A stretch of DNA of 13,650 nucleotides, taken from a virus. Its lineage: Duplodnaviria > Heunggongvirae > Uroviricota > Caudoviricetes. The notes below the pieces were generated by a model. The model was not told where the DNA came from, made no database searches, and saw only the letters and a list, made by a program, of their open reading frames with translations. The stretch spans positions 1 through 13,650 of IMG/VR virus record IMGVR_UViG_3300029490_000278. One strand, 5' to 3'. Shown one piece after another: positions 1 through 13,650 of this stretch. Position 1 is the first letter of the stretch; each line of letters begins with the position of its first letter. A program made the translations under genes and the position numbers.

Positions 1-1053
1 TTATTTCCCCACCAGCTCGTTTATCTCTTTCACTGTCTGGTTAAACCGCTCTGACTCAAGCTCAACACCTAAGGCCCGACGCCCCAGCGCCATTGCTGCT
101 TTTATTGTGGAACCGGATCCCATAAAAAAATCAGCAACCAGATCACCAGGTCGACTACTGGCATTGATTATTTGCCTGAGCATATCCGCCGGTTTCTCAC
201 ACGGATGTTTACCCGGGTAGAACTGAACGGGTTTATGCATCCAGACATCGGTATAAGGCACGGAGACTGATACGGAGAAATAGCGCCGGAGAGATTTAAA
301 CTCATCCAGCAATTCAGAATATTTGCGATTCAGTGAATCATAAGACGCCGCCAGCTGGTGGTGTGGTTGTTCCAGTTGTTGTTCCTGAAACTTCTCTGCC
401 GCTATACGGGAAAACAGTGCCTGTAACTTCCGATAGTCAGCCTCATTCGGCAACTGCCACTGACTGGCACCAAACCAGTGGGAAACCATATTTTTCTTAC
501 CTGTGGCTTCGGCAATTTGTTTTGCCGTTATACCCAGTTCGGCACGAGCATCCCTGAAATACGATATCAGCGGTGCCATTATGTGCTGTTTGAGTTCCCT
601 TTCTTTTGCTGCATAGCCGTCACTTTTGCCGCGATATGGCCCCTGGTAATGTTCAGCAAACAGAACGCGCTCTGTGGCAGGAAAATATGCGCGCAGACTT
701 TCTTTATTACACCCATTCCAACGTCCGGACGGCTTCGCCCAGATGATATGGTTAAGCACGTTGAAACGTTCACGCATCATGATCTCAATATCAGATGCCA
801 GGCGATGCCCACAGAACAGGTAAAGGCTTCCGGCAGGTTTTAACACCCGCCAGAACTGGGCCAGACAGTGGTCCAGCCACTTAAGGTAATCTTCGTCCCC
901 TTTCCACTGATTGTCCCAGCCGTTGGGTTTCACCTTGAAGTACGGCGGATCGGTAACAATCAGGTCAATGGAATCATCAGGCAGGGACTGAATAAAATGC
1001 AGGCAATCAGCGTTGATTAAATCAACACTGTTTATTTTTACAGTATTTTTCAT
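1..1053 (-). CDS. DNA methyltransferase, amino-MTase type (N6-adenine or N4-cytosine), beta-class motif order
   Basis: 350-aa ORF. Motif IV DPPY near the N-terminus (LIVTDPPYF) and motif I FxGxG near the C-terminus (DFFMGSGST). ATG at 1051-1053; stop TAA is complement of bases 1-3, so the gene is complete within the window. No clear SD. Confidence 0.85.
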   Translation of the reverse strand: MKNTVKINSVDLINADCLHFIQSLPDDSIDLIVTDPPYFKVKPNGWDNQWKGDEDYLKWLDHCLAQFWRVLKPAGSLYLFCGHRLASDIEIMMRERFNVLNHIIWAKPSGRWNGCNKESLRAYFPATERVLFAEHYQGPYRGKSDGYAAKERELKQHIMAPLISYFRDARAELGITAKQIAEATGKKNMVSHWFGASQWQLPNEADYRKLQALFSRIAAEKFQEQQLEQPHHQLAASYDSLNRKYSELLDEFKSLRRYFSVSVSVPYTDVWMHKPVQFYPGKHPCEKPADMLRQIINASSRPGDLVADFFMGSGSTIKAAMALGRRALGVELESERFNQTVKEINELVGK

Positions 1054-1203
1054 GGATCAGTAAGCGTAACTCTGGTAGGCTCACTCTGCTTTTGCGCTAA
1101 AGCAGTGGGCCGTGGTTCGCTTGTGACCAGTAAGCATGAGCGAATGGCTGGCAGGTGCTACCAACACCCACCAGCCGCCCATTTTCACAGCAGGAAACCG
1201 CCA

Positions 1204-1407
1204 TTACTGGCAGCGTCTGAATTTATTCCCGTACCCGCCGTTATCCTTCGCCAGACCCGCCAGAACTAACTGAGTCAGTATTAACTGGCACCGGGCTTCG
1301 CTTACTCCGGTAGTTCTCGTCATCATGCGTGGCGTTACCCACTTGTCAGCAGGTAAGAAATGAAGGACTGCGGCGGCGGTTTCTGTCATATCTTGCTGTT
1401 TTAGCAT
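1204..1407 (-). CDS. Small helical protein (67 aa), possible winged-helix DNA-binding regulator
   Basis: SD AAGGGA about 8 nt upstream of the ATG at 1407; the in-frame upstream ATG at 1431 has no SD. Sequence resembles small phage regulators, but no diagnostic motif. Confidence 0.45.
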   Translation of the reverse strand: MLKQQDMTETAAAVLHFLPADKWVTPRMMTRTTGVSEARCQLILTQLVLAGLAKDNGGYGNKFRRCQ

Positions 1408-1452
1408 GTCTTTTTCCCTTCTGGTTAACATGACATACCAATAACTCTTGTC

Positions 1453-1479
1453 TAAAAAGCCAGCAAGATAAAAAGCCAG
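1453..1479. repeat. Two 11-bp direct repeats TAAAAAGCCAG (1453-1463 and 1469-1479)
   Basis: Exact repeat read directly from the sequence, 16-bp periodicity, lying between the candidate terminator at 1529-1551 and the start of the small - strand gene. Role unknown. Confidence 0.6.
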
Positions 1480-1528
1480 TATTCACGACCACCAGCGTGT
1501 TTACTGTACTGCACCAGGTTTACAGGTA

Positions 1529-1551
1529 CAAAAAAACCGCTCAGCGGCGGG
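1529..1551 (-). terminator. Candidate intrinsic terminator on the - strand (short GC stem plus 7-U tract)
   Basis: + strand reads caAAAAAAACCGCTCAGCGGCGGG. On the - strand this is a short CCGC/GCGG stem followed by UUUUUUU (1530-1536). The stem is short, so this is weak. Confidence 0.3.
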
Positions 1552-1599
1552 TTTAAGTTGTGTGGCGAAGTAACCACTCTTAACATAATACAATACTTT

Positions 1600-1653
1600 T
1601 TGCGTACGCGTTAATAATTCTATATTATACAAGAAAAACAAGCTGGAAGACAA
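1600..1653. promoter_or_regulatory. AT-rich intergenic region with candidate divergent sigma70 promoters
   Basis: + strand: TTGCGT (1600-1605), 17-nt spacer, TATTAT (1623-1628), upstream of the OLD-like gene. - strand: TTGTCT (complement of 1648-1653), 18-nt spacer, TATAAT (complement of 1624-1629). Pattern match only. Confidence 0.25.
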
Positions 1654-1658
1654 TTAAA

Positions 1659-3437
1659 GTGAGTGAAATCATAAAGTTAAAAGGGCTAATGAATACAAAT
1701 GCTATTGAGCCGTTCATTCGCCATATACGGTTTCCGTATTTTAAAAATCTTGAAGAATATAGCACTATACATTTTCACTATCCTATTACTGCATTAGTTG
1801 GTCAAAATGGAACCAATAAAAGCTCAGTATTACGTGCATTATATGGTTCTCCAAATAATTATTCCTTAGGAAATCTTTGGTTTTCAACTGATCTAGACGA
1901 GATTAAAGATGGTGGTCGTTCTAGATTTATTTATGGATACTATGATTCCGCATCTAAAGATGTTGTTGAAGTAATAAAAACAAGGATTGTAGACAAGGAG
2001 GATCCTGATTTATGGGAAACTTCGAGACCTCTAACTAAAGATGGTATGAAAAAAATACCAACAGATATTATTTCGCCAAATCAGCAAAAATCACGCTGGA
2101 AACAGATAGACAAAATTGTCACATATATTGATTTTAGAGCTTCGATCAGTGCATTCGATAAATTCTTTTATCATTCGGACTTTGATCTTTATCCAAAGAA
2201 AAATCACCTGAGAAAAAGAAGCCATCTTCTTAAAGAGATAATAGATAAAGGCCTAACATCATACAAGCCCTTTAAAGGTAAAAAAGAAAGGTTGTATAAG
2301 AATGAATTACTTTCTCAAGAGAAGGTAGAAATCATCAGCGATATACTTGGTAGACCTTACAAAACAATTAGACTTATTGAGCATGCCTTATTTACAAACA
2401 ATAAGGCTTCAACCGTTATTTTAGAGTCTCATAGTCTCAACTACTCCGAGGCTTTTGCAGGAAGTGGGGAGTTTGCAGTAACTATTCTCGTAAATCAAAT
2501 TGTTAACGCGCCAACAGCATCATTAATTCTTTTAGATGAACCCGAAGTCTCACTTCATCCAGCAGCACAGTTTAAATTGATGTCTTTTCTAAATAAGATT
2601 TGCTTAAAAAACAAACATCAAATTGTTATTTCAACACACTCATCATCTATAGTTAGCCAACTACCTAAGGAAGCCATAAAACTTTTTAATCTTAATTCAA
2701 ACTCAGGGAAAGTTAGTATAGTTGAAAACGTTAGCCCTGAGGAAGCTTTCTTTACGCTTGGAGACCGACTATCAAAAAAAACTATCTTTGTAGAAGATAA
2801 ACTGGCTAAAAAATTCGTTGAGAAGGCTTTAAAATCAGGAGGTCCTGCCCTAGCCAATACATTTGATGTTATATATTGCCCAGCTGGTGCAAGCACATTA
2901 TTAGGTAATATGATTGTCTCATTATTTTTATCAAGAGTTGATAATGCGGTATTTTTATTGGATGGTGATCAGAAGACAAGCCATGATTTCATTACATCAG
3001 CCTTAATACCAAGCAGTGAAGATAATTCTTTAAATGAAAAAATAAAAAATATTCTTGGGTGTGAAATTAAAATACCAACTGATGGGCATGGTGGAACTCC
3101 AAATAAACAGCAGAAGATTCAACTTCAGCGTGATTTCATTGATTTTTCATATAATTATGTAGGGTATTTACCTATCATTAATCCAGAAACTTTTTTGATT
3201 GACAATCTTCCGGCTTTTTACTCCGATATGATTAAAGATTTAAACTTATCAAAACTATCACCAAAATCAATAATTGCAGAAATATGTAAAAGAGACATAG
3301 AAAATAACGTTATAACTTCTGATGATATTTTCGCAACACAAATCAGGATACTAACCCGAATACCTGAGAATCATGTCGCATTTTCTGAAACGAGAGAAAT
3401 GCTGAAATTTTTCCTTGAACATGGTAAGATAAGATAA
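1659..3437 (+). CDS. OLD-family nuclease: N-terminal ABC-type ATPase plus C-terminal TOPRIM domain
   Basis: 592-aa ORF. Walker A GQNGTNKS (res 48-55), signature-like AGSGE, Walker B LILLDEPEVSLHP (D293/E294), H-loop STHS, TOPRIM glutamate in TIFVEDK (E379) and DxD in FLLDGDQ (D434/D436). Start is GTG at 1659; an in-frame ATG at 1689 is the alternative. Visibly AT-rich relative to flanks. Confidence 0.8.
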   Translation: MSEIIKLKGLMNTNAIEPFIRHIRFPYFKNLEEYSTIHFHYPITALVGQNGTNKSSVLRALYGSPNNYSLGNLWFSTDLDEIKDGGRSRFIYGYYDSASKDVVEVIKTRIVDKEDPDLWETSRPLTKDGMKKIPTDIISPNQQKSRWKQIDKIVTYIDFRASISAFDKFFYHSDFDLYPKKNHLRKRSHLLKEIIDKGLTSYKPFKGKKERLYKNELLSQEKVEIISDILGRPYKTIRLIEHALFTNNKASTVILESHSLNYSEAFAGSGEFAVTILVNQIVNAPTASLILLDEPEVSLHPAAQFKLMSFLNKICLKNKHQIVISTHSSSIVSQLPKEAIKLFNLNSNSGKVSIVENVSPEEAFFTLGDRLSKKTIFVEDKLAKKFVEKALKSGGPALANTFDVIYCPAGASTLLGNMIVSLFLSRVDNAVFLLDGDQKTSHDFITSALIPSSEDNSLNEKIKNILGCEIKIPTDGHGGTPNKQQKIQLQRDFIDFSYNYVGYLPIINPETFLIDNLPAFYSDMIKDLNLSKLSPKSIIAEICKRDIENNVITSDDIFATQIRILTRIPENHVAFSETREMLKFFLEHGKIR

Positions 3438-3463
3438 ATTTTAGATTATTATAGAGACAGATC

Positions 3464-4498
3464 ATGAAGAAAAAAATCAAAGTTTTTGACTTCTTTTCAG
3501 GATGCGGGGGAACAAGCAAAGGCCTTAAAGAGGCTGGGTGCGAAATTTTCTTCGGTCTCGATTATGATTATGACTCTGGTCAAACCTTTCAGGCAAATAA
3601 TCCTGATGCTATATTTTTTAATGAGGATATACGCTCCGTTAAGTTAAATGATTTATTTCAGCTTGTAAAAAAAGCGAAGCAAGACTCACATGTTTTGTTT
3701 TGTGGTTGTGCTCCATGTCAACCGTTCTCAAGGCAAAATAAAAATAAAAGCAAAGAAGATCCTCGAAGAGGATTATTAAACGAATTTGGTCGTTTTATCG
3801 AGTACTATTGTCCTGATTATGTACTGATAGAAAATGTTCCAGGATTACAAAAAGTTGATATTAACGATGGACCATTGCATGATTTTATAACTCTTCTGAA
3901 AAAGAAAGATTATAATTTAGCTTATGGTGTGATTCCCGCTTTATGGTACGGAGTGCCTCAAACCAGAGAGCGTTTTGTTCTTATGGCCTCACTTCATTCC
4001 CCAATCCATCTACCAGAGCGCACGCATAATGGCGAAGATATCCCATTTGCGACGGTAAGAGATTGGATCGGAAATATACCACCAATTGAGGCAGGTGAAT
4101 CACATCCTACATTACGAGATCATGTTAGTGCAAAACTCTCTGCTTTAAATCTTAAAAGAATTAAAGCAACGCCAGAGGGTAAAGGTCGAGAGTTTTGGCC
4201 TAAAGAGTTGTTACTTGAATGTCATAAAAACCATACAGGTCACAGCGATGTATATGGCCGATTAGCATGGGATAAACCTGCTAGTGGATTAACTACAAGA
4301 TGCATTAGTTACTCTAACGGAAGATTTGGCCATCCTGAGCAACACCGGGCAATTTCTGTTCGCGAGGCTGCACTGCTACAAACATTTCCATTGGATTATA
4401 TATTCATCGGTTCAATGCTTTCTAAAGCTAAACAAATTGGTAATGCAGTCCCACCTAAAATGGCGGAGTCTATAGGGCATGTTTTTATGAATATTTAG
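3464..4498 (+). CDS. DNA (cytosine-5)-methyltransferase, Dcm-type
   Basis: 344-aa ORF with the full C5-MTase motif set: I FDFFSGCGG, IV GCAPCQPFS (catalytic Cys), VI IENVPGL, VIII QTRERF, X QIGNAVPP. Starts 26 nt after the OLD-like stop on the same strand; AT-rich. Confidence 0.9.
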   Translation: MKKKIKVFDFFSGCGGTSKGLKEAGCEIFFGLDYDYDSGQTFQANNPDAIFFNEDIRSVKLNDLFQLVKKAKQDSHVLFCGCAPCQPFSRQNKNKSKEDPRRGLLNEFGRFIEYYCPDYVLIENVPGLQKVDINDGPLHDFITLLKKKDYNLAYGVIPALWYGVPQTRERFVLMASLHSPIHLPERTHNGEDIPFATVRDWIGNIPPIEAGESHPTLRDHVSAKLSALNLKRIKATPEGKGREFWPKELLLECHKNHTGHSDVYGRLAWDKPASGLTTRCISYSNGRFGHPEQHRAISVREAALLQTFPLDYIFIGSMLSKAKQIGNAVPPKMAESIGHVFMNI

Positions 4499-4518
4499 CT
4501 GGAGCGTAAGCTCCAGCT
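4497..4518. terminator. Perfect 9-bp inverted repeat with GTAA loop between convergent genes
   Basis: AGCTGGAGC-GTAA-GCTCCAGCT, read directly. It overlaps the C5-MTase stop (4496-4498) and ends 3 nt before the stop of the - strand Q-like gene (4522). No U-tract on either side. Confidence 0.4.
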
Positions 4519-4521
4519 TAC

Positions 4522-4863
4522 CTATAACATTGACATTACTCCCTCAACAAATCCCAAGGCGGATTGCAAATCCTTCCGGATAGTCCCGTCCGAACATTTC
4601 CGCTTCTTTGCAATTGTGCGGAGTGAAATACCTATAACAAAGTGAACAATGAGCAGCTCAAACTCATCTGGTTTATACTTTCGTAACCGAGCCACACAAC
4701 TGTCTACCATAATACCTTCGTCATCATCACACTGAATCCGGGACTTTTTGCCATGAGGTAAAAGCCCCTTAAAGCCAGCGGCTACCTGTTGCCAATCCAC
4801 ACCACTGTTTTCTGCCGCAGCCCATGCCCCCCAGCGGTCCAAAACTTCATACATATCACGCAT
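4522..4863 (-). CDS. Small Q-like late-gene antiterminator (tentative)
   Basis: 113 aa from the ATG at 4863, with SD GGAGAAA 5-6 nt upstream. Family assignment is from recalled similarity to small Q-type antiterminators and from position after the nin-like genes; no motif is diagnostic. Confidence 0.4.
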   Translation of the reverse strand: MRDMYEVLDRWGAWAAAENSGVDWQQVAAGFKGLLPHGKKSRIQCDDDEGIMVDSCVARLRKYKPDEFELLIVHFVIGISLRTIAKKRKCSDGTIRKDLQSALGFVEGVMSML

Positions 4864-4880
4864 CAACTTTCTCCACAAAA

Positions 4881-5876
4881 TCAGGCCAGCACGCCTATTG
4901 CCAGCGCACGATCGATAAAACGAAATATCAGCTCCAACTGGGAGCCATACTTCTCTTCAAATGCCACGGTATCCGCATGTAGTTCGTCGTGATGCTTTCT
5001 GCACAAAGGCAACACAAAGAGGTCATGCGCTTTTGTACCCATTCCCCCCTGACCGTGGCCTATCAGGTGGTGGGGATCATCAGCAGGCTTTCCACAACAT
5101 GCACACGGCTGTGTCTTAACCCAGCGCGTGTACTTTTCATTAACCCAGCGGCGACGTTTTGGGCGTAACATAAAAGACTCCGGCGACTTCGGATCCACTT
5201 TCAGCGCCAGCACTTTTTTCGCTTTATCCTGGATGATGCTGGTGGCAGGAACCGAAGGCACAAGGTCACTTTCCCGGGTAACAGACGGCACAACAGGCTT
5301 CGGTAATCTAAGTGCCTTACGGGCTGCACTTTCCGGTAAGGCATCCGCCAGGTCATTACGAATCAGCCACCAGCACAGTTCCGGCATTGTCACAACGTGA
5401 CTGTCATCAAAACCGAGATCCCGACGCACAACAGACAACACCCAGCGGGCACAGTTATCCGTTGCCATTGATTCCAGCCGTTCTGTGAACTGATCGCGCA
5501 GCTGGTTATCGCAGTGCCAGCACAGACGGATTGCGCCCGGAGCGTGTCGCATTGTGGTCATGTTCTCGCTGTGCCAGTCGGAATGAGGCCACTGGCAGCC
5601 TTTTTCACGAAGTAACCAGCTTTCAAGACATTCCACGCCACCAGCACGACGGATCACTGCCTCATTGCGGAACACGCCCCGAACGGCAGGATCATCCGCC
5701 AGCGGTTGTGATGCCGCGGGAACGGCACCACTGGCGAAAGATGAATAACGCTCCGGCTCAGGCTCCAGCAGGACACGCCCCTGCATAAATAGGGGCATCA
5801 GCTCTGAACCTGGTCTGAACAATACGATCCCCATACGCGGGGCAATTTCAGGGGTCAGTAGTGCTCTCACGGTCAC
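4881..5876 (-). CDS. Phage nin-region protein with C-terminal Cys/His (HNH-like or zinc-binding) motif, DUF968-like (tentative)
   Basis: 331-aa ORF. C-terminus carries CACCGKPADDPHHLIGHG...LPLCRKHHDELH. The GTG at 5876 overlaps the upstream TGA stop (GTGA), suggesting translational coupling; exact start is ambiguous. Confidence 0.6.
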   Translation of the reverse strand: MTVRALLTPEIAPRMGIVLFRPGSELMPLFMQGRVLLEPEPERYSSFASGAVPAASQPLADDPAVRGVFRNEAVIRRAGGVECLESWLLREKGCQWPHSDWHSENMTTMRHAPGAIRLCWHCDNQLRDQFTERLESMATDNCARWVLSVVRRDLGFDDSHVVTMPELCWWLIRNDLADALPESAARKALRLPKPVVPSVTRESDLVPSVPATSIIQDKAKKVLALKVDPKSPESFMLRPKRRRWVNEKYTRWVKTQPCACCGKPADDPHHLIGHGQGGMGTKAHDLFVLPLCRKHHDELHADTVAFEEKYGSQLELIFRFIDRALAIGVLA

Positions 5877-5877
5877 C

Positions 5878-6687
5878 TCAATGTACGGTATCGAGCAGCT
5901 TTAACAGCTCAGGGAATCGGGATTCGAAGAAATGCGGCTGCGTCTCGCGCGGATTTGCGGGACTGGTGATGTTCTTGCCGAACATGCAGCCTTTCGCTGT
6001 CAGTGACCAGAATTTTTTGATGTTGTTAATCGCGGTACGGCTGTATCGTTCGCGCTGCTCGACGATCCCCAGCTTCACCATCTGGTGATATGCCTGATTA
6101 GCTGTCAGGCGGATACCATACTGCTTCAGCAATGCACTCAGTGACAGCGTGGGGCGGCTTGAGCCATCAGGCGCGTCAGCAGGAGCATCAATGGCATAGC
6201 GCGGTGCCAGATTCGGTAAGCCAACAGCCTCCTGGAGTTTCTGACAGGCACCAAGCACTGAAGAGTTAGACAGGTTTAATTCCCGGCGCATAAAGTCCAG
6301 CAGAATCACACCAGCCTGCATCTTGTCAGCAGCCTGTCCGGATAATTTTTCCGGTGCGCTGGTTACCATGTCGAAAGTACGGATCACCTTCAGATGGAAT
6401 GACGGGCTGATCCACATTGCATAGGCATACACCAGTTCTTTGCAGACATACGTCCCCTGGTTATTTCCGCCATTAATGACGCTAACTGGTTGATTTTGTT
6501 CCAGAGGCGGAATTCCACCCTCGGTGAAAAGTTGTTCAATCAATTCACAGGTTTGCTTATTGGAGAGCCAGTATTTCGGGCGGTTTTTTTGTTCTCCCCC
6601 GGCTGCCCTGTGCAGATCGTTCAGGCTGTAACGCCCATAAGCATCACGACGAACTTCAATACCATCAATGACCATCAGATTATTCAT
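5878..6687 (-). CDS. KilA-N domain protein (antirepressor-like)
   Basis: 269 aa from the ATG at 6687, with SD GAGGAG about 8 nt upstream. N-terminal region (MVIDGIEVRRDAYGRYSLNDLHRAAG...YWLSNKQTCELIEQL...GTYVCKELVYAYAMWISPSFHLKVIRTFD) fits the KilA-N fold pattern. Confidence 0.65.
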   Translation of the reverse strand: MNNLMVIDGIEVRRDAYGRYSLNDLHRAAGGEQKNRPKYWLSNKQTCELIEQLFTEGGIPPLEQNQPVSVINGGNNQGTYVCKELVYAYAMWISPSFHLKVIRTFDMVTSAPEKLSGQAADKMQAGVILLDFMRRELNLSNSSVLGACQKLQEAVGLPNLAPRYAIDAPADAPDGSSRPTLSLSALLKQYGIRLTANQAYHQMVKLGIVEQRERYSRTAINNIKKFWSLTAKGCMFGKNITSPANPRETQPHFFESRFPELLKLLDTVH

Positions 6688-6706
6688 ACTTCGTTTCTCC
6701 TCTTGA

Positions 6707-6952
6707 TCAGGCGGCTGCACCCGCCGGTTTCTCGTACTTACTGATAGTGATCTCGACCTTCCCTTCCGGGATAACCGGTCCCCACTCCACCAACATTCTT
6801 TTCACTTGGCTGTCGTCTTCCCACACACCCGCGTGGGTCAGGGCGTCAAACAGCGCCTTGTTATAGTTGTCCAGATCGCGGATCCGGTTACGGGTCTTCG
6901 CGTTTTTCGGTGTACGTGCTGACGGACGGTGATAAGCGCAGGGAAAGCTCAT
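6707..6952 (-). CDS. rusA: RusA-like Holliday-junction resolvase, conserved C-terminal core with short or atypical N-terminus
   Basis: C-terminal 55 residues (RIRDLDNYNKALFDALTHAGVWEDDSQV...GKVEITISKYEK) match the RusA catalytic region, including the DLDN and DD acidic residues. The ORF can be extended to an ATG at 7066 (119 aa), but that N-terminus overlaps the O-like gene in another frame and lacks the usual RusA N-terminal motif. Confidence 0.5.
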   Translation of the reverse strand: MSFPCAYHRPSARTPKNAKTRNRIRDLDNYNKALFDALTHAGVWEDDSQVKRMLVEWGPVIPEGKVEITISKYEKPAGAAA

Positions 6953-7769
6953 CCCATTTTTCCCGCAACTTCGACGGGCTGAGCACGTTACGGCACCAGA
7001 ACGGATCGCGGCTGACGCGGCTGTACATCTCGCAGATTTGTTTGTGAGTACGACCATCCTGTACACACATCAGGCGAATTTCGTTTGCCCAGGCTGTCCA
7101 GTTCGGTTCTTTGGGACGAACCACCTCGCCGTCACATTCGGCGGCTTGCTCGTACAGGGCGATGATTTTTTTCCAGAGCCACTGTGCGCAGGTCAAATCA
7201 TCCTGCGTTCCCCACTGGCGCTTTTTAGGGCTGAATACAACCGCATCAGGATGGCGAGTTAAAAAATCCTGTTCATCCGTCTGCGTGTCCGGTTGCGAAG
7301 CGTCCGGACGAGAAGGTTTTTTATCTGACGGATCATGTTTTGATTTTACTGACGGATCCCCGCCAGATTCTGACGGGTGAAAACCCGCTTTTTTGCCAGA
7401 TTTCGACGCATCAAATTTTGACGGGTCAGATTTTGATGCGTCAGATTTTGACGGGTCAGAATCTGACAGTTGAGAAAATGCCGCTGCCTGAAGCTTCGCA
7501 ACGTTAAGCTGATAAACATTCGACGCATTGCGGTTACCCTGGCGACGCGCCTTACGCGTTAACCAGCCTTCTGCTTCCAGCCGTGCGATAGCCGTTCTGA
7601 CGGTACTCATCCCCGCGCCAATCTGGCGGGCAATGGTTTCAATTGATGGCCAGCACACACCTTCGTCATTACTGAAATCAGCCAAGCGGGCCATAATTGC
7701 CACGCTGGATAATTTCATGCCTGACGCTGCGCAACCATCCCATACATAGCCGGTTAATTTAGTGCTCAT
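6888..7769 (-). CDS. Replication initiator, O-like (N-terminal winged-helix DNA-binding domain, repetitive acidic/Ser-rich linker)
   Basis: 293-aa ORF, ATG at 7769 with SD AGAGGT 6 nt upstream. N-terminal HTH-like region (SVAIMARLADFSNDEGVCWPSIETIARQIGAGMSTVRTAIARLEAEGWL). Linker (SDSDPSKSDASKSDPSKFDASKSG) is encoded by tandem 15-bp repeats. Sits in the O position of a lambdoid early-right operon. Confidence 0.6.
   Translation of the reverse strand: MSTKLTGYVWDGCAASGMKLSSVAIMARLADFSNDEGVCWPSIETIARQIGAGMSTVRTAIARLEAEGWLTRKARRQGNRNASNVYQLNVAKLQAAAFSQLSDSDPSKSDASKSDPSKFDASKSGKKAGFHPSESGGDPSVKSKHDPSDKKPSRPDASQPDTQTDEQDFLTRHPDAVVFSPKKRQWGTQDDLTCAQWLWKKIIALYEQAAECDGEVVRPKEPNWTAWANEIRLMCVQDGRTHKQICEMYSRVSRDPFWCRNVLSPSKLREKWDELSLRLSPSVSTYTEKREDP
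7399..7458. repeat. Four tandem 15-bp iteron-like repeats (consensus GATTTTGACGGGTCA) inside the O-like gene; candidate origin
   Basis: Units at 7399-7413, 7414-7428, 7429-7443 and 7444-7458, with degenerate copies at 7321-7335, 7366-7380 and 7459-7469. Each unit has internal dyad symmetry (TGAC..GTCA). Confidence 0.6.
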
Positions 7770-7778
7770 GACCGACCT

Positions 7779-8117
7779 CTATTTCCCTGAATTTACGACG
7801 AAACTGTTCGAGCGGGCTGAAGCACTCATGCTCATAGCCTTCACGGAGGTAGATAACCCGTTGTGTTTCCGGCTCCCAACGAATGACTCTGACGGGCACT
7901 CCGTAGTGATCTTTGAACCAGCGGTTAACTTGTCGCAAAGGACTGCCTCCTTCTGCCGGTTGAAATCCCCCACAGCCCACTCTGCAAAGCTGTGGGTTAC
8001 AATTTCCCTGTCACCTGGTACATTCACTGCATAGCAATACTCCACCTTCGCTTTTCCACCCGGTACAGGAAGCGCAATCAGTTGCGAGCGACGGTAGTGT
8101 GTTGTTAAACTGTTCAT
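7779..8117 (-). CDS. Hypothetical early protein (112 aa), possibly frameshifted
   Basis: ATG at 8117 overlaps the upstream stop (ATGA). A -1-frame ORF (7759-7980) continues from a C5/G5 homopolymer at 7967-7971 and would end just before the O-like start. Confidence 0.45.
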
Positions 8118-8677
8118 GCGTTAGTTTCTCCACAGTCACGACACGCCACGGCGCCCGGAGCTGCACACTCGCGGGCGTCATTACTTTCTGAAATGCAAAA
8201 AATTTTGTAGACCAGTGCTGCATGCTCCTGCAGCTTCGAAATTGAGAGGTACAACTCGTCGTTAATTGCTGTCTTCTCATGCGGTTCCACTACACCGTCT
8301 TCAATTGCTGAACGAATCTGTTTTGAATAACTGCCGATCTGTTCAATGACCTCCAGCAGGCGTTGGTTGATATCGGCGTTGTCCACATCCTCGACGTCAG
8401 GAAGAGACACAAAGACGCCATTTGCAGACTGCGCCACAGCATCAGCAATGAAGTGAGTGCCACCAGCACGCTGTAAAACCATTGCCCATCCCAGCGGGAA
8501 AATCTGATCGCCATCTGCACGAAGGCGGTTGAATAAAGCGTTTTCTGTTACATCGAGCCAGTCAGCCGCTTCAGCGTAACCACCCGGCAACGCCGCGATA
8601 GTTTTTCTGACAGCTTTCACGTACCACTCAGGCTGTTTTTCTATTTTCCAGTGATGCTTACCCACGATTAGCCTCAT
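8114..8677 (-). CDS. Early regulatory protein in the cII position (function tentative)
   Basis: 187-aa ORF directly downstream of the cro-like gene, ATG at 8677. Assignment is by synteny with lambdoid early-right operons; no diagnostic motif. Confidence 0.5.
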
Positions 8678-8708
8678 CGTTCTGTGGTTAAAAATTGAAA
8701 GTGTTCTG

Positions 8709-8909
8709 CTAATCTTTCGGATAGATATCCGGTCTTAAGTCAGATTTCGTAATTGCACCTGACGTGCATTGCTCAAGTTTTTTAGCCAGCACAAAACTGG
8801 CTTTTTTATAGCCATTGAAAACCAGCCGTAAGTAGCCAGGTGTTGAGCCAACTTTTCCGGCCAACTCGCCCTGCTGTTCTTTGGTTAAAGAGTCCCAATA
8901 CGCTTTCAT
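8709..8909 (-). CDS. Cro-like small HTH repressor
   Basis: 66 aa from the ATG at 8909, with SD GGAGGT 9 nt upstream. HTH-like sequence (LTKEQQGELAGKVGSTPGYLRLVFNG), divergent from the CI-like gene. The longer listed ORF (to 9212) runs antisense through the repressor gene and is rejected. Confidence 0.7.
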   Translation of the reverse strand: MKAYWDSLTKEQQGELAGKVGSTPGYLRLVFNGYKKASFVLAKKLEQCTSGAITKSDLRPDIYPKD

Positions 8910-8915
8910 ACAATA

Positions 8916-8982
8916 TGTACCTCCGGTGTACATATTACATGATTGAAATGAACCTTCAAGATACTTGTACCTTAACGGTACA
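8916..8982. promoter_or_regulatory. Immunity switch region: divergent promoters plus two TGTAC-N7-GTACA operator palindromes
   Basis: Operators at 8916-8932 (TGTAC ctccggt GTACA) and 8966-8982 (TGTAC cttaacg GTACA). - strand promoter: TTGAAG (complement of 8954-8959), 16-nt spacer, TAATAT (complement of 8932-8937). + strand candidate: TTGTAC (8965-8970), 17-nt spacer, TTTAAT (8988-8993). Confidence 0.55.
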
Positions 8983-8999
8983 AGGGTTTTAATTTCGTT

Positions 9000-9674
9000 A
9001 TGAAAACAATCCATGACATCCGGCGGTCTAACGCCAGAAAACTGAGAGATGGTGTTGGCGGGAATTCTTCCTTTGCCACTATGATTGATCGCGAGCCAAC
9101 CCAGACCAGCAGGTTTATGGGAGATGGTGCTACTAAAAATATCGGTGACAGCATGGCACGACACATCGAAAAATGTTTCGACCTGCCTGTCGGATGGCTC
9201 GATCAAGAACACCAGACAACGAACATCACAAAAAAACCTGATGTTTCAATCACTAATAAACAAATCACATTAGTCCCTGTCATATCATGGGTACAGGCCG
9301 GAGCATGGAAAGAAGTTGGATATTCTGAGGTTGATTTGAGCACAGCAGAAACGTATCCCTGCCCTGTACCCTGTGGGGAAATGACTTATATCTTGCGGGT
9401 GATAGGTGATTCAATGATTGATGAGTACCGCCCGGGAGACATGATTTTTGTCGATCCTGAAGTACCTGCCTGCCACGGTGACGACGTTATTGCATTGATG
9501 CACGATACAGGTGAAACCACCTTCAAAAGGTTGATAGAAGATGGGACACAGCGTTATCTCAAAGCGTTAAACCCAAACTGGCCTGAGCCTTACATTAAGA
9601 TCAACGGTAATTGCTCTATAATTGGTACAGTGATTTTCTCAGGAAAACCAAGAAGATACAAAATCAAAGCCTAA
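9000..9674 (+). CDS. CI-like phage repressor with LexA-type S24 peptidase domain
   Basis: 224-aa ORF with an N-terminal XRE-type HTH and a C-terminal S24 domain (Ser in VIGDSM, Lys in TFKRL). No SD before the ATG at 9000. Confidence 0.85.
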   Translation: MKTIHDIRRSNARKLRDGVGGNSSFATMIDREPTQTSRFMGDGATKNIGDSMARHIEKCFDLPVGWLDQEHQTTNITKKPDVSITNKQITLVPVISWVQAGAWKEVGYSEVDLSTAETYPCPVPCGEMTYILRVIGDSMIDEYRPGDMIFVDPEVPACHGDDVIALMHDTGETTFKRLIEDGTQRYLKALNPNWPEPYIKINGNCSIIGTVIFSGKPRRYKIKA

Positions 9675-9686
9675 TCAATGTTTATG

Positions 9687-9709
9687 AACCTGCTTCGGCA
9701 GGTTTTTTT
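9687..9709 (+). terminator. Rho-independent terminator downstream of the repressor gene
   Basis: 7-bp stem AACCTGC/GCAGGTT with a UUCG tetraloop, followed by a 7-T run (9703-9709), 13 nt after the repressor stop. Confidence 0.8.
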
Positions 9710-9713
9710 ATAC

Positions 9714-9758
9714 TTGACAATGTACCTTTGAGATACATAATGTACCCAAGCGAAACAA
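9714..9758 (+). promoter_or_regulatory. pL-like promoter with embedded operator
   Basis: -35 TTGACA (9714-9719), 16-nt spacer, -10 CATAAT (9736-9741). Operator-like TGTAC-N7-aTACA at 9721-9737 sits between the -35 and -10; a weaker copy (TGTAC at 9742-9746) follows. Confidence 0.55.
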
Positions 9759-9908
9759 CGAACAGGCAGGACGCCCACGAAGTAGCCGCCTGGGGCATAT
9801 GAAGTCCAGGATGATTCGTTAGCAACAAAAAAGCGCCCTACAGGACGCTTAGCTCTTTAACAATCTGGTCCCCATCAACAAGTAACTGATAACTTGAGGA
9901 GATGTGAA

Positions 9909-10115
9909 ATGCACAAAACAGAACCCAAAATCGTCGCGCCTGGCTACACAGATGAGGAAATTTATGAGTGGATGACAAAGAAGCTGGCAGCTATAAACCA
10001 GCTTCGTGAAGTGCTGTCTTATCGACAGGAAACAATAGACTCCTTAAAAAAACTGGATCAGGAAATCACGGTTTTATCACAGGATGTTACTTTAGATATT
10101 GTGCAGACAAATTAG
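9909..10115 (+). CDS. Small hypothetical early protein (68 aa, predicted helical)
   Basis: ATG at 9909 with SD GAGGAG 7 nt upstream; first gene after the pL-like promoter. No recognisable domain. Confidence 0.4.
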   Translation: MHKTEPKIVAPGYTDEEIYEWMTKKLAAINQLREVLSYRQETIDSLKKLDQEITVLSQDVTLDIVQTN

Positions 10116-10521
10116 GATCCCATTCATTTTCGTCAAAATCATCAAAATGATGAATTTGTGATCTCCAGTCTCGATAATCTAAAAATTTCTGGGCGGTTAC
10201 GCTTATTTTATCAAGTGTGAGTTCATCCTGAATTGAAAGAAGAAGTTCATCAAATTTCATCTCATTAATCTGTTTTGGCATCCAGTGATGCTTCATCAGA
10301 ATAAGGTGAACCAGAGCCTTTTTCCCATTCAACTGATTATAGGGAGTGCCGAATTTCTTCCGGTGCTCATGTAAGACAAGGTCCAAAAGAGTAAGTAATG
10401 TTGCCCTTGATTCAACTTTGCTTATTTCGACTGATGACACTACCCCACTGATTTCAATGCCCCGATACTTTCCAACATTTTCACAGTGGGATTTGTACAG
10501 CGTATAGATATTACCGGACAT
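10087..10521 (-). CDS. AT-rich hypothetical protein (144 aa) on the opposite strand of the early-left operon; candidate moron
   Basis: ATG at 10521 with SD AAGGAA about 6 nt upstream. Visibly lower GC than its neighbours. 3' end overlaps the convergent 9909-10115 gene by 29 nt. No motif recognised. Confidence 0.5.
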   Translation of the reverse strand: MSGNIYTLYKSHCENVGKYRGIEISGVVSSVEISKVESRATLLTLLDLVLHEHRKKFGTPYNQLNGKKALVHLILMKHHWMPKQINEMKFDELLLSIQDELTLDKISVTAQKFLDYRDWRSQIHHFDDFDENEWDPNLSAQYLK

Positions 10522-10807
10522 TTCTTTTCCTTTTGCGTTGTTGGGGATAACCAGATTAACCGAATCCTTGTTGTTGGGGAATAACTAGGTCCACCTCGCC
10601 TGATGTGGCTAAAAGCAGGCACATAACAGCTAAGTATTTTCAACCAGAGAGAATCCTTAGCGTTGTGGTGAATGCGGCTCAGCGCACGCGGGTTAAGGTT
10701 GAGGCTGACAGTCGACCTTCTGTGGATACCCACCCGCCTGGTGTGCAACCTTCGCCAGGCACCGGGAGGCACCCGGCACCACAACTTTATGCTGTGTGTA
10801 GTCTTGG

Positions 10808-10852
10808 CGGTACCAGCTTGTACCCTTGCTTCCGGCTGGTACCGTCCTTTTT
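10808..10852 (+). terminator. Candidate intrinsic terminator or structured RNA 3' end
   Basis: Perfect 10-bp stem CGGTACCAGC (10808-10817) / GCTGGTACCG (10835-10844) with a 17-nt loop, followed by TCC then TTTTT (10848-10852). Confidence 0.4.
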
Positions 10853-10941
10853 ACAAAACAGAGAAGAGCATCACCGGACGACGGGCTCATAACCCAATCC
10901 ATCCGGGCGGCTGCCACCGCAGGTGTTCTTCTCTGTTTTGT
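10853..10941. repeat. Perfect 15-bp inverted repeat enclosing a 59-nt GC-rich segment
   Basis: ACAAAACAGAGAAGA (10853-10867) and its exact reverse complement TCTTCTCTGTTTTGT (10927-10941). An 11-bp direct repeat ATCACCGGACG also occurs at 10870-10880 and 10996-11006. Confidence 0.6.
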
Positions 10942-11065
10942 GGAGAAACTAACCGCCCCTACGGGGGCATTTATGGAAATGTAATTGACTCAATAATCAC
11001 CGGACGGTGAGGGCTTCCTTTTACCGGAATTCAGCGCGGTGCAGCGCATATACGTGGAGAACAAA

Positions 11066-11602
11066 ATGTCATTTATTAAAACTTTTTCCGGGAAGCATTT
11101 TTATTATGACAGGATAAATAAAGACGACATCGTTATTAACGATATCGCGGTTTCCCTTTCAAATATCTGTCGCTTTGCAGGACATCTTTCACACTTCTAC
11201 AGTGTCGCCCAACATGCGGTGCTTTGCAGCCAGCTGGTGCCGCAGGAATTTGCTTTTGAAGCTTTAATGCATGATGCAACAGAAGCATATTGCCAGGACA
11301 TCCCCGCACCACTGAAACGACTTCTTCCTGACTATAAACGGATGGAAGAAAAAATAGACGCCGTAATCCGTGAGAAATACGGGTTACCTCCTGTTATGAG
11401 CACGCCAGTGAAATATGCCGATCTCATTATGCTGGCAACCGAACGCCGCGATCTCGGGCTTGATGATGGCTCTTTCTGGCCTGTGCTGGAAGGTATCCCG
11501 GCAACAGAGATGTTCAACGTGATTCCACTGGCTCCAGGCCATGCCTACGGGATGTTTATGGAACGCTTTAACGAATTATCGGAGTTACGCAAATGCGCAT
11601 GA
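11066..11602 (+). CDS. HD-domain phosphohydrolase (5'-deoxynucleotidase-like)
   Basis: 178 aa from the ATG at 11066, with SD GGAGA 5 nt upstream. HD-superfamily motifs: H in FYSVAQHAV, HD in ALMHDATEAY, D in DLIMLATERRD. Stop overlaps the next start (ATGCGCATGA). Confidence 0.8.
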   Translation: MSFIKTFSGKHFYYDRINKDDIVINDIAVSLSNICRFAGHLSHFYSVAQHAVLCSQLVPQEFAFEALMHDATEAYCQDIPAPLKRLLPDYKRMEEKIDAVIREKYGLPPVMSTPVKYADLIMLATERRDLGLDDGSFWPVLEGIPATEMFNVIPLAPGHAYGMFMERFNELSELRKCA

Positions 11603-11955
11603 ATGTTTTCGAAATGGAAGGGTTTCTTCGTGGGAGATGTGTACCGCGAGATCTGAAAGTGAATGAAACGGATGCTGAATACCTGGTGCGTAAATTCGAT
11701 GCGCTTGAAGCTAAATGTGCAGCACAGGAAAACAAAGTAATACCAGTGTCAACTGAACTGCCACCAGCAAATGAAAGTGTTTTGTTATTCGATGCTAACG
11801 GAGAAGGCTGGCTAATTGGCTGGCGTTCTCTCTGGTACACCTGGGGACAAAAAGAAACCGGAGAATGGCAGTGGACATTTCAGGTCGGGGACCTTGAAAA
11901 CGTCAATATCACTCACTGGGCAGTAATGCCAAAAGCACCGGAGGCTGGAGCATAA
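11593..11955 (+). CDS. DUF551-like phage protein (tentative)
   Basis: 120-aa ORF translationally coupled on both sides (shares TAATG with the next gene). Domain call is from recalled sequence pattern only. Confidence 0.5.
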   Translation: MRMNVFEMEGFLRGRCVPRDLKVNETDAEYLVRKFDALEAKCAAQENKVIPVSTELPPANESVLLFDANGEGWLIGWRSLWYTWGQKETGEWQWTFQVGDLENVNITHWAVMPKAPEAGA

Positions 11956-12260
11956 TGACCACTTTTACCGACAAAGAACTGATTAAAGAAATTAAAGAGC
12001 GTATCAGCAGCCTTGACGTGCGAGACGATATTGAGCGCCGTGCTTATGAAATCGCACTCCTATCTCTGGAAGTAGAACCAGATGAACGCGAAGCTTATGA
12101 ATTATTCATGGAAAAGCGTTTCGGTGACTTAGTAGATCGTCGGAGAGCAAAAAACGGCGATAACGAATACATGGCATGGGATATGACTCTCGGTTGGATC
12201 GTCTGGCAGCAACGAGCTGGTATCCATTTTTCAACAATGTCACAACAAGAGGTGAAATAA
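11955..12260 (+). CDS. Hypothetical phage protein (101 aa)
   Basis: Start ATG overlaps the upstream stop (TAATG) and its stop overlaps the excisionase start (TAATG), so it is part of a tightly coupled operon. Confidence 0.45.
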   Translation: MTTFTDKELIKEIKERISSLDVRDDIERRAYEIALLSLEVEPDEREAYELFMEKRFGDLVDRRRAKNGDNEYMAWDMTLGWIVWQQRAGIHFSTMSQQEVK

Positions 12261-12610
12261 TGGAGCCATACAGCCTCACACTCGATGAGGCCTGTCATTT
12301 TCTCAAGATATCCAGACCGACTGCCATTAACTGGATACGCACAGGGCGTCTTCAGGCAACACGCAAAGATCCCACTAAGAATAAATCTCCTTACCTCACA
12401 ACACGACAAGCCTGCATTGCGGCTCTTCAGTCTCCGCTGCATACTGTCCAGGTGAGCGCGGGTGATGGCATAACAGAGGAAAGAAAATGTCACTCTTCCG
12501 CAGAGGTGAAATATGGTACGCCAGTTTCACATTGCCGAACGGTAAAAGATTTAAACAGTCTCTTGGAACAAAGGACAAAAGGCAGGCGACAGAACTCCAT
12601 GACAAGCTAA
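12260..12610 (+). CDS. xis: Excisionase-family HTH DNA-binding protein
   Basis: HTH region [26 protein letters not shown] immediately upstream of the integrase. Start taken as the ATG at 12260; the ORF track starts the frame at 12176. The frame runs to 12610, overlapping int by 124 nt. Confidence 0.55.
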
Positions 12611-13650
12611 AGGCTGAAGCATGGCGGGTCAGCAAACTTGGTGAAATACCTGATATAACGTTCGAGGAAGCTTGTGTCAGGTGGCTTGAAGAGAAAGCAC
12701 ATAAAAAATCACTGGACGATGACAAAAGCCGGATCGGATTCTGGCTTCAACATTTCGCAGGAATGCAACTAAGAGACATTACTGAATCAAAAATTTATTC
12801 AGCAATGCAGAAAATGACGAACCGGCGTCATGAGGAAAACTGGAAACTCAGGGCAGAAGCATGCAGAAAAAAAGGGAAACCTGTTCCAGAATACACGCCA
12901 AAACCAGCGTCCGTTGCAACGAAGGCTACGCATCTTTCATTTATAAAGGCCCTACTAAGAGCCGCAGAGCGTGAATGGAAAATGCTGGATAAGGCACCAA
13001 TTATTAAAGTGCCTCAACCAAAGAATAAACGGATCCGCTGGCTGGAGCCCCATGAAGCACAAAGGCTGATTGATGAATGTCCGGAGCCATTAAAGTCTGT
13101 TGTTGAATTTGCACTGGCAACAGGCTTAAGACGCTCGAACATCATCAACCTTGAATGGCAACAAATAGATATGCAGCGCCGGGTGGCATGGATAAACCCG
13201 GAAGAGAGTAAATCAAACCGCGCAATTGGCGTTGCGCTGAATGATACTGCATGTCGCGTATTGAAAAAACAAATCGGGAATCATCACCGTTGGGTATTTG
13301 TGTACAAGGAAAGCTGTACCAAACCAGACGGAACGAAAGCGCCAACAGTAAGGAAGATGCGGTATGACGCAAACACAGCCTGGAAAGCGGCGCTGAGACG
13401 GGCTGGTATTGATGATTTCAGATTTCACGACTTGAGACACACCTGGGCAAGTTGGCTGGTTCAAGCCGGAGTCCCGTTGTCAGTGTTACAGGAAATGGGA
13501 GGCTGGGAGTCTATCGAAATGGTTCGTCGATATGCTCACCTTGCACCTAATCACCTTACCGAACACGCACGGCAAATAGACTCGATCCTGAACCCATCGG
13601 TCCCAAATTTGTCCCAGTCAAAAAATAAGGAAGGTACTAATGATGTGTAA
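12487..13650 (+). CDS. int: Tyrosine recombinase, phage integrase
   Basis: 387-aa ORF with SD GAGGAA 6 nt upstream. Catalytic signature is present: R in [18 protein letters not shown] box, terminal RRYAHL with the Tyr nucleophile. From memory it resembles the e14 IntE family (unverified). Confidence 0.95.

Follow-up and report, generated by a model that had tools for sequence, protein, structure and literature searches.

The window analysed here, a 13,650-nucleotide stretch of a tailed-phage record (IMGVR_UViG_3300029490_000278, positions 1 to 13,650), is the early region of an SfII/SfIV-like lambdoid prophage integrated beside proA. At its centre two open reading frames (ORFs) on the minus strand overlap out of frame. 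One encodes a replication initiator resembling the lambda O protein (O′, 7769 to 6888, 293 residues followed by TAA). The other runs from a GTG start at 7066 to 6707 and encodes 119 residues related to RusA, its first in-frame ATG lying at 6952-6950 (residue M39). An earlier sequence-only reading had placed the end of the O-like frame at 6888, the opening of the RusA frame at 7066 and the ATG at 6952, and had given the out-of-frame overlap as 65-179 nucleotides (nt). All of these values hold, the shorter overlap being counted from the ATG and the longer from the GTG. It proposed that either a deletion had fused the replication and nin regions, leaving a replication-defective prophage, or the phage uses a single initiator that recruits host factors. 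We find that the overlap is the by-product of a deletion junction, that the missing helicase loader is a trait of the initiator's family, and that the deletion removed an initiator tail resembling the C terminus of the host protein DnaT. An account joining the scar, the loader-free family and helicase recruitment through that tail is, taken as a whole, highly probable.

The deletion was located by alignment with intact relatives. When window positions 6300-8200 (1,901 base pairs (bp)) were used as a megablast query against 5,426 complete Escherichia coli genomes, 80% or more of the query lay together at a single joined place in 617 of these. Among the best 30 places listed, all were split in two pieces and spanned about 2,983 bp (3,310 bp in H2) against the 1,901-bp query. 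Direct blastn alignment with an intact E. coli prophage taken as reference (L001, in NZ_CP098211) resolved two blocks, window 4817-6890 corresponding to L001 4518-6591 and window 6889-8693 to L001 7672-9476, and a second intact prophage (L002) gave the same two-block outcome. The window thus carries a 1,080-bp deletion at 6889/6890 across a 2-nt TA microhomology, equivalent to the loss of L001 6592-7671. At the junction ...CCGGTTA is followed by CGGGTC..., rusA matching the left flank as far as GGTTA and the initiator gene matching the right flank from TACGGG onwards.

The 1,080 bp hold, in L001, the last 20 initiator codons, a PerC-family gene (yfdN, 164 residues), a 108-residue gene with a LexA N-domain and rusA codons 1-69; the corresponding interval in L002 and SfII additionally contains a Dam-type methylase. 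These families were assigned from the annotation of L001, L002 and SfII together with family scans (PerC/ANR-like, LexA N-domain, RusA). Illegitimate recombination across the TA dinucleotide joined initiator codon 293 (of 313) to rusA codon 70. The initiator TAA stop arises at the junction, and the truncated product (6888..7769, minus strand) ends ...EKREDP instead of ...EKREDPYFKSSYDNVDYSQIPAGFRG, with 293 residues rather than 313 and without the last 20, YFKSSYDNVDYSQIPAGFRG. The converse, that the 1,080 bp are an insertion in the relatives, is unlikely, since each of the two flanking genes falls short of its family profile.

The other side of the junction is a remnant of rusA. Residues 1-59 of the RusA-frame ORF come from initiator DNA in the wrong frame, and rusA-derived sequence starts only at N60 (window 6889 downward). 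Because the RusA frame upstream of 6889 is out-of-frame initiator sequence, the apparent O/RusA overlap is a scar and not a gene arrangement. What survives of rusA (6707..6889, minus strand) comprises codons 70-129 of a 129-codon gene plus the stop. Correspondingly, Pfam RusA matches the ORF only at profile positions 57-123 of 124 (E 2.1e-12) rather than over a complete domain of about 120 residues. The N-terminal region that the earlier reading could not recognise is therefore absent altogether. Compared with the RusA Holliday-junction resolvase, a lambdoid nin-region gene, the fragment retains residues 70-129 (at 100% identity to the relatives' 129-residue protein), including the acidic motifs RDLDN and EDDSQ, which we take to hold the catalytic Asp residues of E. 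coli RusA. It differs in that the deletion has taken away the first 69 residues along with the translation start. The previously noted intact catalytic core is thus right for the acidic residues and wrong for the protein, half of which is missing. The native ATG lay in the deleted DNA, GTG 7066 and ATG 6952 both fall inside the initiator gene, and the piece has neither a start codon nor a ribosome-binding site of its own. With half the protein gone and no start of its own, the rusA piece is therefore a pseudogene.

Genuine overlapping genes, in which a RusA variant with a novel N terminus is translated from the 3′ end of the initiator gene, would account for the 119-codon open frame, its in-frame ATG at 6952 and the acidic active-site-region residues (RDLDN...EDDSQ). 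However, the frame upstream of 6889 is identical to the relatives' initiator DNA, outside their rusA, the conserved first 69 residues of the intact 129-residue RusA are missing, and just a weak GGGA stands upstream of ATG 6952, leaving this arrangement extremely improbable. As a separate observation, rusA of phage SfIV (L004 6756-7151) is frameshifted into ORFs of 33 and 71 residues, unannotated in the record; a split rusA in this plaque-forming phage indicates that RusA is dispensable for lytic growth.

The scar is rare. None of the 5,426 complete E. coli genomes matched a 201-bp query spanning the junction in one unbroken piece, and searches of species-representative genomes, JGI metagenomes and IMG/VR for the exact junction string were likewise negative. 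Such absences are what an assembly or sequencing artefact would produce, yet the identical junction occurs in five independently assembled records from ENA, two NCBI genomes and Logan, and we consider an artefact hardly credible. An exact-protein look-up found the 293-residue product on record in 17 contigs. Of six loci retrieved, five share the junction as an exact 32-mer and are 99.99-100% identical to the window: L009 and L012 (ENA), L010 (GCA_036611685.1) and L011 (GCA_029358885.1) from NCBI, and L014 (Logan). Three of these loci (L009-L011) extend into the host flank, and there the prophage adjoins crl-phoE-proB-proA. L010 and L011 have additionally lost 244 bp from within the KilA-N gene (window 6120-6363), which fits ongoing decay. 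We conclude that the scar is genuine and confined to one lineage; the source contigs end just past the window, which places the late region of the source prophage outside view.

Other breaks in this gene were also seen. A second, independent deletion in another allele, of 97% DNA identity (L013 8505-8515, Logan SRR5936509; equivalent to window 6887-6891), interrupts the initiator inside the same GTA, fuses it to a side-tail-fibre gene and gives the identical 293-residue product ending ...EDP. Its breakpoint may mark a hot spot, a chance event among many decay events or a chimeric contig. Many database variants of the initiator are truncated or fused in frame to unrelated phage proteins (P0011, P0013, P0014, P0023, P0025, P0041 and P0042; also L020 and L072), the fusion partners being DUF968, baseplate, invertase, antiterminator, tail sheath or tail tube proteins. 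In L020 the deletion runs from the repressor directly to the KilA-N gene. From the number of such variants it follows that deletions ending in the initiator gene are recurrent in enterobacterial prophages.

Past the scar, the first intact gene encodes a KilA-N domain protein (5878..6687, minus strand, 269 residues), followed by a DUF968/HNH-like gene (4881..5870, minus, 329 residues) and a late antiterminator gene of the Q family (4522..4863, minus). Pfam confirms the earlier remark that no P-like or DnaC-like gene separates the initiator from the nin-like genes: between initiator and Q lie only the rusA remnant, KilA-N and DUF968/HNH genes, and no P-, DnaC- or DnaB-like gene. A partner loader gene P (PF06992) is likewise missing directly downstream of the initiator in close relatives. 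In intact E. coli prophages the initiator is followed by PerC-like, methylase, LexA-like, RusA, KilA-N, DUF968 and Q genes, with no loader. The same initiator-only order recurs in SfII, SfIV, mEp460_4F5, Citrobacter phage phiNP, coliphage LLS, Yersinia phage YeP1 and L017-L019, and in intact prophages that share the window's Dcm/AAA/methylase cargo. The complete 41.5-kb SfII record contains no annotated helicase, loader or primase. The window, its relatives and the whole SfII annotation thus conform to an O-only module, in which an O homologue is the sole replication gene and neither helicase nor loader is encoded.

These relatives include functional phages. SfIV has been induced by ultraviolet light, forms plaques and has been propagated lytically (PMC3851460), and SfII, too, was sequenced as a phage after induction (PMC3772137). 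Their initiators (SfII_41 and SfIV gp41) and those of CPS-53/KpLE1-like E. coli prophages are 99% identical to that of the window over residues 1-293. The group shares with the window its neighbouring genes (cII-like, small ORF and initiator, then KilA-N, DUF968 and Q), the integrase/xis side and the integration region beside proA. It differs in having a 313-residue initiator with a ...SQIPAGFRG tail, followed by PerC-like, with or without Dam, LexA-N-like and rusA genes, the 1,080 bp that the window lacks. A 2025 study of LLS described its replication module as an O homologue only, counted such modules in 34 of 314 enterobacterial lambdoid phages and noted that this type of replication is not yet understood (PMC12315714). 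The LLS protein, gp44, is a single O homologue without helicase or loader; its N-terminal 177 residues are 74% identical to the window initiator and it ends ...KIPEGFRG, whereas the window copy is tail-less. LLS and phiNP also have a different globular C-terminal domain (phrog_22793/phrog_428). The element is thus a decayed member of the SfII/SfIV/CPS-53-like group with an O-only module, and both the group and the module type have been described before.

A deletion that removed a P- or DnaC-like loader formerly lying between the initiator and the nin-like genes would fit the lambda gene order, in which P directly follows O, and close homologues with lambda-like tails do carry P at that place. 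The closest relatives, 97-99% identical on both flanks, carry only PerC-like, with or without Dam, LexA-like and rusA genes there, and the length of the missing interval is fully explained. Alignment with relatives thereby refuted a lost loader, which we regard as very improbable. Because functional relatives with an intact interval also have no loader, its absence is not due to the deletion and is the normal state of this module. The proposed fusion of replication and nin regions is therefore correct as to a deletion (1,080 bp, at 6889/6890) but not as to a lost loader, and the replication defect attached to it stays a probable consequence. The single-initiator alternative is also partly right, in that the family, the inducible and plaque-forming SfIV included, encodes no loader. 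Related functional phages with an identical arrangement, named beforehand as evidence that would count against the earlier reading, were found for the missing loader and not for the O/RusA overlap. Lytic replication by an O-only module is shown for SfIV and is doubtful for the truncated allele of the window.

The initiator itself has three parts: a winged helix at the N terminus, a linker encoded by iterons and a C-terminal domain of the lambda O type. Pfam assigns HTH_36 (E 3.9e-11), with weaker winged-helix matches to GntR, PaaX and DnaD_N. In an AlphaFold 2 model built from a 32-sequence alignment, the N-terminal winged helix is predicted with confidence; it is followed by a disordered linker at residues 102-159 (predicted local distance difference test score (pLDDT) <50), a confident helical C-terminal domain (~161-280, pLDDT >90) and then a low-confidence tail. 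Foldseek matched the N-domain to MarR/ArsR winged helices (probability 1.00, E ~4e-3). Together, HTH_36, the weak DnaD_N match and Foldseek identify an N-terminal winged helix-turn-helix (HTH) domain of the origin-binding kind. Within the coding sequence of the linker lies an iteron array (7364..7471) of 15-bp CAGATTTTGACGGGT-like units, five of them head to tail, with degenerate copies extending to ~7320 and A/T-rich runs at 7257-7326. Six matches with at most three mismatches were counted against 0.45 expected, and none of 200 shuffles reached six. These iterons encode the low-complexity inter-domain linker SDSDPSKSDASKSDPSKFDASKS, and the putative origin would thus lie within the initiator gene, as in lambda.

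To characterize the C-terminal domain, a profile was made from diverse representatives, gathering 2,631 clusters at E ≤1e-3. By hhalign the family alignment matched lambda O with a probability of 100% and E 6.2e-43, covering lambda O 63-297; on the strength of this profile match, the initiator is a true lambda O homologue in its C-terminal domain. Both the window family and lambda O match phrog_277, phrog_391 and phrog_2357. The C-terminal domain of lambda O contacts P. Other searches added little here: a PDB sequence search with the whole initiator returned MarR-type HTH matches only, Pfam found no family at E ≤10 for the C-terminal domain alone, and Foldseek of the full-length model was dominated by the N-terminal winged helix and uninformative on the C-terminal domain. 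Window initiator and lambda O are thus alike in their two domains, in linker-encoded iterons inside their own gene (ori-lambda in the phage) and in homologous C-terminal domains. They differ in that the window N-domain is of the HTH_36 type and not of the lambda O N-domain family, and no P gene follows; moreover, lambda O ends ...TDWIYGVDL, whereas the window's intact relatives have a DnaT-like tail instead.

That tail is the part of the initiator that the deletion removed, leaving 293 residues. In the family, the last helix is followed by a variable segment of about 15-20 residues and then by a conserved terminal ...VDYSxIPxGFRG, in which P307, G309 and R311 are at least 90% conserved; 78 of 80 near-identical IMG/VR alleles retain the tail. 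The intact initiator ends ...SQIPAGFRG and E. coli K-12 DnaT ends ...VSEPDSQIPPGFRG. BLASTP aligned SQIPAGFRG of the initiator with SQIPPGFRG of DnaT, eight of nine residues being identical and both stretches lying at C termini, and in 16 enterobacterial DnaT sequences S167, P169, D170, I173, P174, G176, F177, R178 and G179 are invariant. In a profile-profile comparison of initiator and DnaT the tails alone align (E 3e-4). The globular domains are not detectably related by this comparison, and the whole C-terminal domain was accordingly rejected as a homologue of the DnaT C-terminal domain. The suggestion that the C-terminal half be compared with DnaT thus bore fruit for the intact tail. A PDB sequence search with the tail alone returned nothing. 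The same tail is found on initiators with other C-terminal domains, namely those of LLS (...VDTKIPEGFRG) and phiNP (...SGFRS) and the 272-residue L017 initiator.

None of this makes the protein a DnaT. Because the DnaT DNA-binding domain (PF17948) is absent, the window initiator is not a DnaT family member; the ...PDxxIPxGFRG tail, present in intact relatives, is also missing from the window. What the intact relatives share with E. coli DnaT, encoded in the dnaT-dnaC operon, is the extreme C-terminal (S/D)xIPxGFRG at the end of a flexible segment. Automated annotation already labels these initiators 'primosomal protein (I)', and motifs of the DnaT C-domain were reported in the O-like DopC proteins in 2017 (PMC5509034). 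In our literature search (lambdoid DnaT, initiator-solo, YdaU/YdaV), no paper described the tail as an exchangeable unit whose type co-varies with that of the loader. We offer that covariation as a new and testable lead rather than a demonstrated result.

The type of tail and the type of loader go together among same-family members with 58-75% identity to the intact initiator. A PF06992 Phage_lambda_P gene lies immediately after P0044 and P0066, which have a lambda-like tail (...DFDNTDWIYG...), and after P0117 and P0101, which have a tail of the ...WNxPEGWxxVL type. Neither of the two DnaT-tailed members checked, P0073 and P0057, has a P gene next to it; ParB-like or methylase-RusA-DUF968-Q genes follow instead. 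A wider IMG/VR scan for IPxGFRG followed by a stop found 80 loci, with 66 matches ending an ORF of at least 120 residues. ORFs of at least 200 residues formed 22 tail classes, with proteins of 250-364 residues. Among the 22 class representatives, 12 matched HTH_36, 7 DnaD_N, 13 Phg_2220_C and 2 a true DnaT domain, and many of the tails resemble DnaT beyond the searched pattern (for example ...RDVNAVPEPDSEIPPGFRG). The next 1-3 ORFs downstream (43 ORFs in 20 classes) encode PerC, Dam and other methylases, LexA-N, ParB, RusA and DUF1064 proteins; no P, IstB/DnaC or DnaB family occurs among these 43 ORFs.

Where a phage loader does accompany this tail, it is of the DnaC type. YdaU of the K-12 Rac prophage has a DUF1376 N-domain, ends ...VNTVSLPDSAIPPGFRG and is followed by YdaV, an IstB/DnaC-like ATPase (L230 2120-3730). 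Like the window's intact relatives, YdaU is a phage replication protein with a DnaT-like tail; it differs in its N-domain and in the YdaV gene that follows, for which the window's family has no equivalent. A YdaV-like N terminus also follows P0112, a member of the window family with the tail ...EPDTEIPPGFRG. The host genome has dnaT immediately before dnaC (L016 1739-3001), an order that the YdaU-YdaV pair mirrors, which suggests that the two pairs are related as modules. Collectively, the DnaT-type tail occurs with a DnaC-type loader, in phage or host, or with none encoded, and never with lambda P in these samples.

These pairings suggest a route by which O-only phages could acquire a helicase. 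The tail would recruit a DnaC-type loader carrying DnaB to the origin-bound initiator; in initiator-only phages that loader would be host DnaC and in Rac-type modules the phage DnaC-like protein, and with such recruitment a P protein would be unnecessary. The (S/D)xIPxGFRG ending of DnaT, YdaU and O-only initiators might then be a portable recruitment signal for DnaC-type loaders, with SfII, SfIV, LLS and mEp460 mimicking the DnaT tail and capturing host DnaB-DnaC, and the window allele a natural tail-less, recruitment-dead mutant. We advance this tentatively, giving it slightly less than even weight. It draws on the DnaT-like peptide, on the swap to a lambda-like tail when P is present and on the pairing with DnaC-like genes in Rac-type modules and in dnaT-dnaC. 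That the tail binds DnaC we infer from gene co-occurrence.

Several points weigh against tail-mediated recruitment. The YeP1 initiator (L008 3001-4484) shares the N-terminal 180 residues yet ends ...RVSGEIAA, which is neither tail type, and it too has no recognisable loader downstream. Most viral contigs were checked for the next 1-3 ORFs only, and a loader may lie elsewhere in those genomes. The literature covered on DnaT assigns no partner to residues 154-179, and a 2026 preprimosome paper suggests that DnaB/DnaC may be recruited by the N-terminal domain of DnaT and not by its tail. The tail could instead contact PriA, PriB, DnaB or DNA.

For the window prophage, a 293-residue initiator could probably still bind the iterons and the origin but would not recruit helicase. 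Because the deletion removed exactly the tail, we judge the prophage probably replication-defective, and decaying. The opposite case, that the truncated initiator still works and the tail is dispensable or redundant, leaving a replication-competent prophage, gains from what has been retained, namely the winged helix, the iterons and the complete O-type globular C-domain (to about residue 280, pLDDT >90). It gains also from the accessory nature of the other lost genes, which are probably dispensable, since LLS and phiNP do without them (the PerC and LexA-like genes) and SfIV forms plaques with a frameshifted rusA. However, the tail ranks second only to the globular domain in conservation, it is common to initiators with at least three unrelated C-terminal domains and co-varies with loader type, it is kept in nearly all of the close alleles (78/80), and the lineage is decaying further. 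We therefore consider a working truncated initiator unlikely.

The scar itself is ordinary prophage decay, and for annotation both the 119-codon 'RusA' ORF and the 293-residue initiator should be flagged as truncated. Its wider interest is that it removes precisely the element that may explain O-only lambdoid replication. O-only modules make up about one in ten enterobacterial lambdoid phages (PMC12315714), and tail-mediated recruitment offers a concrete and testable answer to how they replicate. If true, it would link phage initiation to the host replication-restart machinery and indicate a function for the conserved DnaT tail.

The rest of the early region is arranged as follows. Between the initiator and the cII-like regulator (YmfL/Phage_CP76; 8114..8665, minus strand) lie two overlapping ORFs on the minus strand (7759..8117). 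The 112-residue ORF (7779-8117) matches phrog_1170 (E 1e-69), and its first 63 residues match phrog_20047; the DUF4222 ORF (7759-7980, Pfam E 3e-19) overlaps it over 7779-7980 in a different frame. Both have family support, public gene calls choose one or the other, and the pair may represent genuinely overlapping genes, a frameshift fusion or a case of alternative annotation. Beyond the cII-like gene are a Cro-like repressor (YdaS-like HTH; 8709..8909, minus, 66 residues) and a divergent cI-like repressor with a Peptidase_S24 domain (9000..9674, plus). At window 10955 there is no counterpart of L001 11878-13180 (1,303 bp, yfdP and yfdQ); yfdQ is also absent from SfII, and the difference may be ordinary mosaicism rather than decay.

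A cargo island occupies the space between Q and the lysis genes (window 1-4498). It consists of an N6/N4 DNA methylase (1-1053, minus strand), a C5 cytosine methylase (3464-4498, plus) and, between them, a 592-residue AAA_21/AAA_15 ATPase (1659-3437, plus) like those known from abortive-infection and OLD-like systems. At the same position L001 carries a TIR-domain gene instead.

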